A DNA stretch of 64,000 bases from a virus (taxonomy: Duplodnaviria; Caudoviricetes). Within the stretch, counting starts at the first letter, position 1, and each line of letters opens with the position of its first letter. Both the position numbers and the translations under genes were made by a program. Positions 59,820-63,728 of this stretch are shown piece after piece. The DNA lies in IMG/VR virus record IMGVR_UViG_3300045391_006539. One strand, 5' to 3'. The notes beneath the pieces were generated by a model that was given only the letters and a program-made list of their open reading frames with translations, did not search any database and was not told where the DNA came from.

Positions 59820-60261
59820 GTCCCGTGTGCATCTCCTTTCCGGTGACGAGACCCATGGCTTGGGCTCTTCCATCCATCGCAATTCTTATTCCGTTTCTGA
59901 TGAGTTCTTCATGCCAGTGTCGGTCGGAGGGAGCCATGTCCTCGAAGAACGCGTAGTCACAAGGTGTGAGAATGAGGCTTCCCTGCTCGATATTGAGGAT
60001 GTGGCTCACCGATTGAGCTTGAACCAATCGCTCGAGCACGGGAATCGGACCCCTTTCCGTCATCGTCGTCTTCTGGAGGACCGTGCAAAAGAACTCGAGT
60101 GGATAGCGCATGCGGATGGGGTTGCCGATGTGCTCGATGAAGTAGCGCCTATCCGTAAATGGGATTCCATGCTCGCAGCCCCAGAGTTGTCCAATGTACT
60201 TACCAGCAGGCGTGAAAGCGATGGCCCAGACGCCGGTGCGGAGTGCTTCGTCTATGTCCAT
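59812..60261 (-). CDS. hypothetical protein
   Basis: GAGGA RBS; in operon. Confidence 0.55.
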   Translation of the reverse strand: MDIDEALRTGVWAIAFTPAGKYIGQLWGCEHGIPFTDRRYFIEHIGNPIRMRYPLEFFCTVLQKTTMTERGPIPVLERLVQAQSVSHILNIEQGSLILTPCDYAFFEDMAPSDRHWHEELIRNGIRIAMDGRAQAMGLVTGKEMHTGHA

Positions 60262-63200
60262 AGGTCCTCGAAGATGGGTCGATGGCCGTGTCCAACGGCT
60301 CTCGGGTGGTCATGCAGCTCGTATTCGAAGGGGCCGTTCTCTTCGAGCGGCCACTGATTGAGGTGTCGTCTGAGTTTCTTGCACATCCCGATGAGCGTGC
60401 CAATGTCGTCCTCGTAGATGAGGATGAGGGGCGACTTCTTACCCGCTTTCTGTCGGGTCGGTCTACCCATGACCTGCTGCAGCATGTTTCTGCTGGAGAA
60501 AGGCATGCTCATGAGCACGGTATCGAGGGACTCGTCATCGAGTCCTTCCTTGCCATACTTCGTGATGGCGAAGACGACTTTCTTGGTCTTGATGTATTCC
60601 ATCCTGGACTTCGCGTCCACGGCGTGAATCATGAGGCCAGCCGTCGTCAGGTTCTCGGTGAGCCACTTTCGATATGCCTTCTGGCGTGAGCGAAACATGC
60701 TCGAGACGAGCTGGTGAACGTCGTCCTGCTGGAACTGCAGGTTCAGGTCGGCCACACGTGCTCGTGCCTGCATCCCTTCTTCGCTGTCCGGGTCTATCCG
60801 CTCGAGCCGCTTCGTGATTTTCTCGAGTGTCGTGACCAGGAATGCACGCTGTTCCGTGGAGAGCTCGACGGGTGGCAGATGCTTGCCAACTTCGGCGGGC
60901 GTCGGAATGGGGATGTCGGTATAGAGAGAACCAGGTATCGGGCTAGACCAATTGCGCATCGTCCAGAGCGCACATAGATTGACGGCCTCGTCGATGGCAT
61001 TGCAGAGTACGAGGACCTTGCGCCCGGCCTGCACGGCTGTATCTACGTCGTTCAGAATCAGGTTCAGCCGTCGCGGCCAGCGCCCGAAGAACGAGGAGAC
61101 CTTGGACATGTGGACCTCTCCGTTGCGGTCGTAGACGTCACTCGTCGCATCCACCGAGAGCCCAGTCCACTTGAAGACGATGCGCGGCTTGATGGTGTGG
61201 GTGATGTCCTTGTAGATGGTCGGGCCCACGTGGTTGTCGTAGATGACGTTCAGGCCATCGTCTCGGACGGCCGTGGCTGTCAGTGCCAGGCGTACGCCTG
61301 GGAAGACCTCTGCTGCTGGCGCGAACGTAGACGCCGAGATGTGATGACAGTTGTGGACGAGTACGCCGTTGGCGAAGTAGTTGTGATTGCCTTCTACTTC
61401 GAGGTTATAGACCGCACTTTCTCTAGGCACTCCATCAGATTGCTCTCCACCTCCATGTTCGAGAATCTCAACATGGTCCACCCGGAGCGTTTCAAGAACT
61501 TCTCCTTCTTCACATCCCTCTGCTTTGCCTGGAGTGTCCCGTGCGACTTTCCGTCGACCTCGATGCCAATCTTCAAGGCAGGGTTGGCAATGTCTATCTT
61601 GTAGTGTGTTGGAAGGCCCTGATTGCGACTGAGTGGGCCAGTCCCCACCGAGAACTCCGCTGTCCAGCCCAGTGCCCTCAGGAGCATCTCCTGTGGCGTC
61701 GGGAGCGGCTTGCCATTTCCGCCCTGCATCTTGGGCTTGTGCCCTTTCTTCTTCAGTGTCTTTGAGACCTTCTCTCGGACACTCTTCTTTCGCATTGGGT
61801 TGCGAGTTTTCATCCGCTCGGATGCATACATCCGGTTCGTCTTTGCCATGGTCTCGGAGGACCGCATGCTCCTGAAAGCGCTGCCATGTTCTCGCGAGCA
61901 GTAGACTCGACCGAACTTTCTGTACTGGTCCTTCTGCCACTTCTTTGGAATTACTGGTGCGCTGCACCAGGAGCAAGTCAGCGTAAGCATGGTGTCTGAC
62001 TCTAACTAGGTCATCATGTTTACGCAAGGAGATTGCCGGGACATACCCACGGGATGTCCAGAATGGGTGGCCTGCAGTGCAGACCTGGCTCGTCCCATCT
62101 TCGAAGTGGACGTGGACGAGCCGTCGTGTGAATCCCGAGTGTGCCCGGAGAACTCGACGCCGCTCTATCGCGCCCGTCTCTAGGTTTGCCGAGAGGACAA
62201 TATCCCCTTCACATATGCTCTCAATGGGACGACCATCAACGAGAGTCCCAGCTGGGAAGCATTCATCAAAGACCACGCACTGAAACCAGTTCCTCACCTC
62301 ATTGGGTAGGTCATGTGCTAGGGCGCCGAGTGTGTGGTAGGTCGCCATTACTAGACCCTTCTTCCAGTCGAAGGTCCCAGCTTGAATACGCCCCACACCT
62401 CCGGGCACCTCCAGCACTTCGTCGATGGCTTGTAGCCATTGCTGAAGGAGATTAGTGTTGTCGACGACGACGAGCGCTGGTCCTCCCTTCCTCGCAATGA
62501 AGTCGAGGGCTATGACTGTTTTTCCCTTCCCACAATTGTGGATGACCATGCCGTTGGCCACGAAGTTGTTGTAGGGCGCCGGGCAGGCAATGTCGTAGAC
62601 CTCCTCTTCCCGCTTTTCAGTCATGGAGATGACCTTCACGGGAGTGGGATAGCCATCACCGATGGCAGCTGCTCCTGGCTGATGCTCGGCAAGGTGGTCT
62701 TCGATGGTTCGGACTTCGAGGTTGTCTGGGTGATTGTTCTTGTGGTTCCCGTCTTTGTGGTGAACGTGGAAGCGTGTTGGGTCGATGAATGCGAGGTCTG
62801 TCGTGAAGGACCCACCCCAGCGGCACCGGTTCCTGAACTCGTTGAGCGTCAGCTTGTTCAGCGTGGCCTCAGCGACTGCTCGGTGTTCCTCTAGGACTAT
62901 GCGCTGCTCGCCGCCCCGGGTCCCGTTCTTGTGGGCGAACGGATGTGAGTTGTACCAGGCCAAGCGCTTGTAGACAGGCTTGGACTTGCGACGCGGTGGT
63001 GCCTTACCGTCGACGATGACTTGGTCTCCGACCTTCAAACCGCTGAGCCGGCTCTTGTAGCCCCTCGTTGTCAGTACTTCATGGTCGGAGGTGAGCCACA
63101 GCCGTTTGCCATTCTCGAGCAGCAGCTCGTAGGTGTGCATCTTGTGTGGCTTCTTGATGATGCCAAGGATGGGCTGGAGACCAACTCGCCCGTCGAGGAG

Positions 63201-63728
63201 AGAGCGAATCTGCGTCGGGATGCTGGGGTCCCAGCTGTACCTGCCTTTCTCGTTGAGGCGCTGCCAGGCCTCGCGCACGGTGCACTTGAAGCCTTTGCCG
63301 GCGCGGTTGAGGTTGATGACCGTGTCGCCAGAGACGCAGCCGAGTTGCAAGATGCCGCTGTCGCTTCGGAGCAGTGCCTCGAGTGCCTTCCTCTGGACGG
63401 TCTCGCCCGTTGGCACGAGCTTGCCATTCACTCGGCGATGGTCGAGCTGGATGCGGCTCGTGATGCCTGTGGGCGTGTACTCGCGAGGTCTGCAGTCTAC
63501 GACCCTGAAAGGCATGCCTGAAGGACGCCAGAGATGCCTCGGCACGAGCAGGTGGTGCTCGGTCTCATCGAAGAGGTAGACGTACCGAATCTTCTCTTCC
63601 GAATACGAGTCTACGAAACGCATCGACAGCGCCTTCTTCACGGCGTCGACATCGACGGCGTGCTTCGGCACCCAGAACCAGTTGTCGATGTACCCCGTCA
63701 TTGGGTCTCTCTTTAGCGCTCTCATCAC
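60252..63728 (-). CDS. superfamily 2 (DExH) helicase with two inteins
   Basis: spliced Walker A LGCGKGKT, Walker B FDECHH, LTAT, EGLD, Q..GR..R. Confidence 0.9.
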   Translation of the reverse strand: MMRALKRDPMTGYIDNWFWVPKHAVDVDAVKKALSMRFVDSYSEEKIRYVYLFDETEHHLLVPRHLWRPSGMPFRVVDCRPREYTPTGITSRIQLDHRRVNGKLVPTGETVQRKALEALLRSDSGILQLGCVSGDTVINLNRAGKGFKCTVREAWQRLNEKGRYSWDPSIPTQIRSLLDGRVGLQPILGIIKKPHKMHTYELLLENGKRLWLTSDHEVLTTRGYKSRLSGLKVGDQVIVDGKAPPRRKSKPVYKRLAWYNSHPFAHKNGTRGGEQRIVLEEHRAVAEATLNKLTLNEFRNRCRWGGSFTTDLAFIDPTRFHVHHKDGNHKNNHPDNLEVRTIEDHLAEHQPGAAAIGDGYPTPVKVISMTEKREEEVYDIACPAPYNNFVANGMVIHNCGKGKTVIALDFIARKGGPALVVVDNTNLLQQWLQAIDEVLEVPGGVGRIQAGTFDWKKGLVMATYHTLGALAHDLPNEVRNWFQCVVFDECFPAGTLVDGRPIESICEGDIVLSANLETGAIERRRVLRAHSGFTRRLVHVHFEDGTSQVCTAGHPFWTSRGYVPAISLRKHDDLVRVRHHAYADLLLVQRTSNSKEVAEGPVQKVRSSLLLARTWQRFQEHAVLRDHGKDEPDVCIRADENSQPNAKEECPREGLKDTEEERAQAQDAGRKWQAAPDATGDAPEGTGLDSGVLGGDWPTQSQSGPSNTLQDRHCQPCLEDWHRGRRKVARDTPGKAEGCEEGEVLETLRVDHVEILEHGGGEQSDGVPRESAVYNLEVEGNHNYFANGVLVHNCHHISASTFAPAAEVFPGVRLALTATAVRDDGLNVIYDNHVGPTIYKDITHTIKPRIVFKWTGLSVDATSDVYDRNGEVHMSKVSSFFGRWPRRLNLILNDVDTAVQAGRKVLVLCNAIDEAVNLCALWTMRNWSSPIPGSLYTDIPIPTPAEVGKHLPPVELSTEQRAFLVTTLEKITKRLERIDPDSEEGMQARARVADLNLQFQQDDVHQLVSSMFRSRQKAYRKWLTENLTTAGLMIHAVDAKSRMEYIKTKKVVFAITKYGKEGLDDESLDTVLMSMPFSSRNMLQQVMGRPTRQKAGKKSPLILIYEDDIGTLIGMCKKLRRHLNQWPLEENGPFEYELHDHPRAVGHGHRPIFEDLWT
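61350..62261 (-). mobile_element. intein in helicase Walker B with an overprinted endonuclease gene
   Basis: FDE|CFPAGT...CTAGHPF...VYNLEVEGNHNYFANGVLVHN|CHH; 304 aa. Confidence 0.9.
61394..61990 (-). CDS. Vsr/DUF559-like endonuclease in an alternate frame inside the intein
   Basis: CSWC...YCSREH; YKIDIA; IEVDGKSH; RD..K..FL...GW..LRFSN. Confidence 0.8.
   Translation of the reverse strand: MLTLTCSWCSAPVIPKKWQKDQYRKFGRVYCSREHGSAFRSMRSSETMAKTNRMYASERMKTRNPMRKKSVREKVSKTLKKKGHKPKMQGGNGKPLPTPQEMLLRALGWTAEFSVGTGPLSRNQGLPTHYKIDIANPALKIGIEVDGKSHGTLQAKQRDVKKEKFLKRSGWTMLRFSNMEVESNLMECLEKVRSITSK
62535..63338 (-). mobile_element. HNH-containing intein in helicase Walker A
   Basis: LG|CVSGDT...LTSDH...HVHHKDGNHKNNHPDNL...VYDI...NFVANGMVIHN|CGKGKT; 268 aa. 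Confidence 0.9.

Follow-up and report, generated by a model that had tools for sequence, protein, structure and literature searches.

Can an intein keep its homing endonuclease in a reading frame other than its own? The question is raised by a helicase gene in a 64,000-nucleotide (nt) stretch of the virus record IMGVR_UViG_3300045391_006539 (Caudoviricetes), referred to here as the window. An initial annotation had placed an intein in this gene and had proposed that its endonuclease is overprinted in a different frame. The anatomy of the locus, the Pfam matches, frame-specific selection and 86 nested loci all support an intein with the endonuclease as a separate overprinted open reading frame (ORF). 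The element is very probably a mobile intein in helicase motif II whose homing endonuclease is a separate protein of 198 amino acids (aa), translated in the +1 frame from an internal ATG. The features concerned are as follows.

60252..63728, minus strand: superfamily 2 (SF2; ResIII/DExH) phage helicase precursor, a single ORF of 1158 aa
61350..62261, minus strand: intein 2, 304 aa, with class-1 features, in helicase motif II between DE and CH
61992..62261, minus strand: N-terminal splicing domain of intein 2 (residues 1-90), single-coding, with third-position variability in the helicase frame and beta-strands modelled at a pLDDT score (for predicted local distance difference test) of 56-79
61394..61990, minus strand: endonuclease gene overprinted in the +1 frame, 198 aa and a stop codon, with an ATG and a TAG of its own
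61500..61991, minus strand: intein-frame filler (intein residues 91-254), i.e. the endonuclease gene read through in the helicase frame
61395..61499, minus strand: dual-function overlap, in which the same bases encode the endonuclease end GWTMLRFSN...RSITSK and the intein strands LRVDHVEILEHGG...AVYNLEV
61350..61393, minus strand: end of intein 2, block G (NYFANGVLVHN), single-coding and followed by the +1 Cys, as read from the sequence

The precursor matches Pfam ResIII (E=1.1e-11) and the phrog_16 DNA helicase family (E=1.3e-24). It includes two inteins, and the mature protein would be 586 aa long once both are removed, compared with 1158 aa for the precursor. The frame of intein 2 is open for 304 codons, starts with CFPAGTLVDG and ends with VLVHN, followed by CHH. 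The N-terminal requirements for splicing are present, namely the Cys1 nucleophile and a block B TAGH at residues 62-65, and C1, T62 and H65 are invariant among 5 relatives. At the other end, the C-terminal HN is followed by Cys at the +1 extein position (GVLVHN/CHH). Excision of the intein would join VVFDE to CHHISAS and so restore a DExH motif II; at this site, SDEHHH and IDEAHR are found in relatives that have no intein. The intein frame scores above the cut-off for both PF14890 Intein_splicing (38.5 bits, cut-off 35.8) and PF07591 PT-HINT (38.9 bits, cut-off 27.7), and the Pfam splicing matches are confined to its two ends. These features indicate a class-1 HINT-fold intein at motif II that is predicted to splice.

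The endonuclease ORF starts 271 nt past the first base of intein 2 and is therefore shifted to +1. The coordinates, the 304-aa open intein frame and the separate ATG and stop of the 61990..61394 ORF all stand as initially annotated; in the endonuclease frame a TAG is found 5 codons upstream of the ATG at 61990. A profile search of both frames, which had been proposed as a check, returned splicing matches only from the ends of the intein frame, as described above, and DUF559 (PF04480) from the +1 frame (E=1.2e-10, 41.7 bits, cut-off 20.6), together with REase_MTES_1575. The protein begins with a zinc finger, continues with long helices and ends with a Vsr-like/EDxHD nuclease domain (residues 94-198); the finger and the nuclease type are as had been suggested. 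The N-terminal region is weakly MYM/TRASH-like, the family profile giving a weak MYM-like match to the zinc finger (E=0.023). The finger has the form CxxC...CxxxC in the family and CxxC...CxxxH in the window, its fourth ligand being His, compared with Cys in ~90% of the relatives.

An AlphaFold2 (AF2) model of the endonuclease, built with 32 relatives, had a mean pLDDT of 91.6. Residues 94-198 superimposed on the DUF559 protein NGO0050 (3HRL) with a Z score of 12.8 and a root-mean-square deviation of 1.1 over 83 aligned residues, on the catalytic domain of I-Bth0305I (3R3P) with Z 11.1, and on E. coli Vsr (1CW0) with Z 9.9. These fold matches came from VIA re-alignment; Foldseek alone gave no structure match at E<=0.001. 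The profile of the 32 relatives recovered 3HRL at 1.2e-8 and 3R3P at 0.017. Sixteen residues are invariant across the 32 relatives, among them D133, E144, D146, H150 and D159, and a D/E/D/H/D set appears to be of the kind that defines the EDxHD family. IEVDG and D-K-x-K can be aligned with I-Bth0305I, the comparison being one of motif pattern and not residue by residue against the published catalytic residues. Judged from its sequence, the nuclease looks intact and is predicted to be active. No second copy of it was found within the 150-kb virus record.

The open helicase frame across this gene exceeds chance: it contains 0 stops, whereas 5000 synonymous-codon shuffles of the endonuclease had 4.9 on average (P=0.0014), and 13 stops occur in the third frame of the same strand. 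The same test on 10 nested loci gave 0 stops against 4.6-11.6 expected (all P<=0.002). The two same-strand ORFs overlap for ~600 dual-coding nt, as initially annotated. By the genetic code, a helicase-frame stop is possible only where a T-ending nuclease codon precedes a codon starting with AA, AG or GA. Such stops need a T-ending nuclease codon, so that a T-to-C change, silent in the nuclease, is enough to remove any of them. In the window, T-ending codons precede 0/60 codons starting with AA, AG or GA and 20/137 other codons. In the other phase, stops would hinge on NTA and NTG, codons for Leu, Ile, Val and Met that would be costly to avoid; +1 is the workable phase.

With the 198-aa protein as query, tblastn matched 40 phage records, at 42-46% identity. 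In all five hits inspected (Vibrio phages CP-T1, 1.088.O and 104E43.1, Pseudomonas phage MR14 and Corynebacterium phage phi673), the match lies at +1 relative to the annotated coding sequence. A total of 91 loci was then compiled from GenBank phage hits, contigs encoding called homologues and the best 80 of 266 IMG/VR matches, the sample being picked for its nuclease similarity. In 86 of the 91 the nuclease lies nested at +1, with 0 helicase-frame stops in all 86 and 1-34 stops in the third frame. The helicase ORFs of the nested loci span ~490-1270 codons (shorter where a contig end cuts them), and the complete loci that could be parsed read DE/C before the intein and HN/C after it. Phages of Vibrio, Pseudomonas and Corynebacterium, and phages of uncultured origin, share one site for the element in their helicases, an indirect sign of homing. 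No in-frame, +2, antisense or split version of the nuclease was found among the 91 loci, a sample chosen by nuclease similarity.

The family is larger than this sample. Among 1.84 billion cluster representatives, 103 clusters (50% identity) matched the intein-frame protein at E<=1e-30, most of them along all 304 residues, filler included. The DE/C...HN/C pattern is present in 133 of the 150 top relatives, whose inteins measure 273-387 aa. A pattern scan of IMG/VR with the 32-sequence alignment gave at least 266 matches, and the corresponding scan with a single sequence (P0002) gave none; blastn of the region against the phage collection returned only a 67-nt match, to an unrelated terminase intein. 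The initial annotation had called the arrangement rare rather than unprecedented. This is appropriate for the literature, where out-of-frame intein endonucleases have been published, but not for sequence data, given the 103 clusters and at least 266 IMG/VR matches. In the 314-kb IMG/VR contig of L026 (L026:3001-3591), a stop lies near the 5' end of the nested endonuclease frame; the first CxxC is lost and 188 codons are open.

The initial annotation had allowed for compensating frameshift errors, i.e. two assembly or sequencing errors that together mask an ordinary in-frame endonuclease domain. When this was checked comparatively, the same +1 phase, a stop upstream of the ATG and the terminal stop recurred in 86 independent loci. 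Finished isolate genomes (CP-T1, MR14, phi673 and Vibrio phages) share the layout at 37-57% protein identity, and the 0/60 T-ending codons before AA, AG or GA codons in the window likewise speak against error. Because 86 independent loci share one phase, a sequencing artefact is excluded for practical purposes, its probability being negligible.

The frame that selection acts on was read from codon-position variability in eight divergent loci. In the N-terminal splicing domain, the mismatch at helicase-frame codon positions 1/2/3 is.46/.38/.72. In the overlap, it is.43/.38/.62 in the nuclease frame and.62/.43/.38 for the same bases in the helicase frame, so that third-position variability moves from the helicase frame to the nuclease frame on entering the overlap. 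Amino-acid identity in the overlap is 45% in the nuclease frame vs 24-26% in the helicase frame. A single-base test on 13 closer pairs (62-85% identity), limited to isolated differences, gave 384 changes silent in the nuclease frame alone and 51 silent in the helicase frame alone; a further 78 alter both proteins and 34 neither. The mutational opportunity for the two one-frame classes is equal (.215 and.226). Purifying selection tracks the nuclease frame and not the host frame that it overlaps.

A sliding comparison of 78 unique loci showed the nuclease frame to be the better conserved one except over the last 11-33 codons, where the frames converge; the paired values for the two frames at the overlap end are.67/.40,.34/.28 and.49/.49. 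Since convergence is limited to the end, the gene divides into ~490 nt that encode the nuclease over stop-free filler and ~105 nt that are fully dual-function. The endonuclease stop lies 11-47 nt ahead of the intein end in the 8 loci measured. The initial view that the central ~200 aa of the intein are filler is therefore kept for ~165 aa (intein residues 90-254) but not for the last ~35 overlapping codons, which encode conserved C-terminal splicing strands. The model of the intein frame agrees with this division, with pLDDT 56-79 at both ends, including C-terminal strands at residues 256-267 and 284-289, and 29-39 across residues 90-254. The filler contains 1 Y, 1 F, 1 I and 0 M and is rich in E, A, G, D and R, and a Pfam search gave no match for this segment.

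These data also bear on whether the in-frame middle has a protein function of its own, for example as a regulated linker that controls splicing, with both frames selected throughout the overlap. The frame is open in every case, hydrophobic residues are depleted and conservation is shared over the last ~35 codons, as such a function would have it. However, identity over the central 165 aa is 0.10-0.30 vs 0.17-0.68 in the nuclease frame, the first codon position of the helicase frame is the most variable one, and changes silent only in the helicase frame are ~7.5 times rarer. Together with the missing Pfam match and the low model confidence, this makes a functional middle very unlikely.

In all nine nested loci examined (9/9), the first zinc-finger cysteine follows an ATG by 2-11 codons and the closest preceding nuclease-frame stop by 3-37 codons. 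In most of the nine, GAGG or GGAGG is located 5-13 nt before the ATG, in several of them within the segment encoding the conserved intein DEVL. A promoter scan of the window gave one weak sigma-70-like site (62224..62197), no better than in shuffles, and no convincing internal promoter. The nuclease is likely to be initiated independently on the helicase mRNA, because the ATG is conserved, is mostly preceded by GAGG or GGAGG, and follows closely on a stop in the nuclease frame. The same features argue against a fusion product, for which programmed ribosomal frameshifting would carry ribosomes from the helicase/intein frame into the nuclease. The +1 ORF does lie on the same mRNA, and no convincing internal promoter was seen, as a fusion would allow. 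However, the window has a stop 5 codons ahead of the ATG, and in the relatives the cysteine is 3-37 codons past a stop, so that frameshifting would need a very short, non-conserved stretch; the ATG is also conserved, in most cases with GAGG or GGAGG before it. A frameshift fusion is thus highly improbable.

A conserved RNA hairpin that would mask the start codon of the nuclease, a feature reported for fractured genes, was considered and rejected as a general feature, with nothing of the kind in 8/9 relatives. Folds around the start codon of the window gave z=-2.3 for 121 nt and z=-0.1 for 81 nt. In Corynebacterium phage phi673 (L003:2446-2480), the likely ribosome-binding site and the nested ATG both fall within a perfect hairpin of 14 bp; the 81-nt fold has -35.3 kcal/mol and z=-4.5, and 0/200 shuffles are as good. 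No comparable hairpin was found in the other 9 loci folded.

Two translation products would thus be made from one message. Ribosomes making the helicase would read through the endonuclease gene in frame 0 and produce a stop-free, probably disordered linker of ~165 aa, and the whole 304-aa insert would then be removed by protein splicing. Ribosomes starting at the internal ATG would make the zinc-finger and Vsr-like/EDxHD nuclease. By analogy with its family, the presumed target of the nuclease is the intein-less helicase allele of a co-infecting phage, cut near motif II, and repair of the cut allele would copy intein and nuclease together.

Several points weigh against this reading. Expression, splicing and cleavage are predictions in every member of the family. 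The ribosome-binding site in the window is weak (tagag). The 13 pairs of the single-base test are not phylogenetically independent, though the bias is the same in every pair. The intein-frame model was built on only 5 sequences, and the low confidence of the filler is partly an effect of depth; because the alignment is this shallow, the low-confidence test is weakened.

The weak Shine-Dalgarno sequence would also suit a +1 ORF that is a decaying relic in the window phage, the intein being fixed and the nuclease inactive or unexpressed, as at a late stage of the homing cycle. The His at the fourth zinc position, where ~90% of the relatives have Cys, points the same way, and decay does happen, to judge from a truncated locus and a nuclease-free mini-intein (L096 and L095, described below). 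On the other hand, the ORF is full length, has every invariant residue and a confident fold, and stays open for 198 codons vs 13 stops in the third frame; the family as a whole is under purifying selection. A relic is accordingly regarded as unlikely, and an overprinted homing endonuclease that is made from its own ATG remains the preferred explanation.

How the arrangement arose can be approached through loci in which the parts occur separately. Free-standing homologues of the nuclease make up the remaining 5 of the 91 loci (L006, L010, L032, L075 and L061), four of them placed as follows.

L006:3501-4127, L010:275-946, L032:3001-3642, L075:1513-2148: free-standing homologues directly upstream of, and slightly overlapping, uninterrupted helicase genes

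Two of the adjacent helicases read DEHH and DEAH at motif II, with no Cys at +1; a DExH match was not found in the remaining two of the four. These copies look like cases of intron-less homing next to the target gene. The fifth copy (L061:2956-3597) lies upstream of a 299-aa ORF of unknown type that is not a helicase. The frame corresponding to the helicase frame contains 23 stops in L006 (shuffle mean 22.6), 17 in L010 (18.5), 29 in L032 and 26 in L075. The free-standing copies are natural controls, with stops as the shuffles predict in L006 and L010.

At the same DE/CH site, L095:1379-1786 encodes a 136-aa mini-intein with nearly identical ends and no nuclease, and L096:1385-2080 a 232-aa intein whose +1 ORF keeps the nuclease domain without the zinc-finger half; the two may represent decay stages or precursors. 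P0221, a protein named Rad3-related helicase by its source (Pfam PF13307), also contains a mini-intein, of 146 aa and with the same ends; this suggests that the intein occurs in a different helicase family as well.

The initial annotation had inferred that a free endonuclease gene invaded a mini-intein. The parts do exist separately, as the mini-intein of L095 and the free copies beside helicases show, and an invasion would fit them, but loss or escape fits equally well. In a tree of the nuclease, free-standing copies are scattered among nested ones; as the tree has no support values and no outgroup, it gives no direction between the two states. Given its 17-29 stops in the critical frame, a free copy could not enter the intein without breaking the helicase, while a nested copy can leave and then gather stops. 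In view of these stops and the scattered placement, escape from inteins is at least as likely as invasion for the free copies. For the mini-intein and the free-standing homologues taken together, both invasion and loss or escape are plausible.

The other intein of the helicase gene is context and contrast for intein 2 and lies outside the overlap.

62535..63338, minus strand: intein 1, 268 aa, matching Pfam Intein_splicing and HNH_3, which splits the Walker A motif (LQLG/CGKGKT)

Its endonuclease is a conventional in-frame HNH (HNH_3 at 22.5 bits, just below the cut-off; phrog HNH endonuclease at E=1e-7). Because of this, a single helicase gene displays both the canonical and the overprinted design. 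The related helicases P0216, P0223 and P0232 (1136-1272 aa) have LAGLIDADG domains besides the DE/CH intein, apparently in a further intein elsewhere in the protein.

The records NC_019457, MT104474, NC_042354, MG592463 and MW824411 (L001-L005) have only a helicase or hypothetical coding sequence annotated, with neither the intein nor the nested ORF. Gene callers and GenBank annotate only the helicase, and an intact, probably active nuclease, so predicted, is therefore missed in dozens of isolate and hundreds of metagenomic phage genomes. The family provides a clean, replicated natural case of ~600 nt of dual coding, with one frame under protein-level selection and the other constrained merely to avoid stops, save for a short segment in which both have a function. 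Why one phase in particular is favoured is also apparent from the layout. The inteins are natural mini-inteins with a long disposable linker and may interest intein engineers. A further idea, offered tentatively and with some doubt, is that the +1 Vsr-like endonuclease and the motif-II intein form one co-adapted, inseparable module, its phase locked by the ~100 nt shared between the GWxxLRFxN end and the splicing strands, and that this is the normal state of a very large family. If true, such locking would explain why no in-frame, +2, antisense or split version appeared in the sample (0/91), and the family would be the best natural system for a selfish gene that colonises an essential ORF by purely silent recoding.

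The general out-of-frame design is already published; what appears to be new here is the nuclease family, the phase, the host site and the abundance. In a cyanobacterial DnaX intein, the endonuclease is a +2 LAGLIDADG ORF (bioRxiv 10.64898/2026.09.14.751524), and the same paper credits an out-of-frame intein endonuclease to Gorbalenya (1998), here known through that citation. Inteins of actinobacteriophages include antisense LAGLIDADG, antisense Vsr-like and same-strand frame-3 endonuclease-VII-like ORFs, hosted by DNA polymerase, minor capsid, terminase and thymidylate synthase genes with no helicase among them; Vsr-like endonucleases are stated there to be otherwise reported only with split inteins (bioRxiv 10.1101/2025.01.02.630785). 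No description of a same-strand Vsr-like endonuclease in a contiguous helicase intein was found in the literature, Gorbalenya (1998) being represented by the papers that cite it.

A close likeness is to the DnaX and endonuclease-VII-like inteins, which share a contiguous intein, a disordered in-frame middle, a same-strand overlapping endonuclease ORF and selection on the endonuclease frame. They differ from the present family in that the endonuclease here is Vsr-like/DUF559, in +1 phase, and located in motif II of an SF2 helicase. The DnaX and actinophage papers call the design rare, whereas the helicase motif-II family is very large. The antisense Vsr-like ORFs of actinophages likewise place an EDxHD-type endonuclease in a contiguous intein outside the intein frame, but on the opposite strand, whereas the present one is on the same strand at +1. 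The catalytic fold and the IE(V/A)DG...D(K/R)xK pattern are shared with I-Bth0305I (3R3P; PMC3239194) and NGO0050 (3HRL), and the modular build of an N-terminal DNA-binding region and a C-terminal nuclease is common to this endonuclease and the I-Bth0305I family (PMC3239194). I-Bth0305I itself, however, is encoded in a recA group I intron and not in an intein, and sequence identity is 17%.

Out-of-frame HNH insertions of the ShiLan type in phage methylases (PMC11855218) are also homing endonuclease ORFs overprinted on a stop-free host frame. They have no splicing domain and stay in the host protein, whereas a complete intein surrounds the ORF here. The fractured genes of Dassa et al. 2009 (PMC2677866) similarly have a Vsr-like endonuclease between intein halves in phage replication genes, and the 3' end of the endonuclease overlaps the C-terminal intein part by 6-69 bp in them, compared with a functional overlap of ~105 nt in the helicase intein. 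In fractured genes the host is split into two ORFs joined by trans-splicing, whereas in the window one 1158-codon ORF runs through, none of the 91 loci is split, and splicing is predicted to occur in cis. An endonuclease gene and an intein can thus coexist without splitting the host gene, and this bears on the route between them proposed by Dassa et al. (2009).

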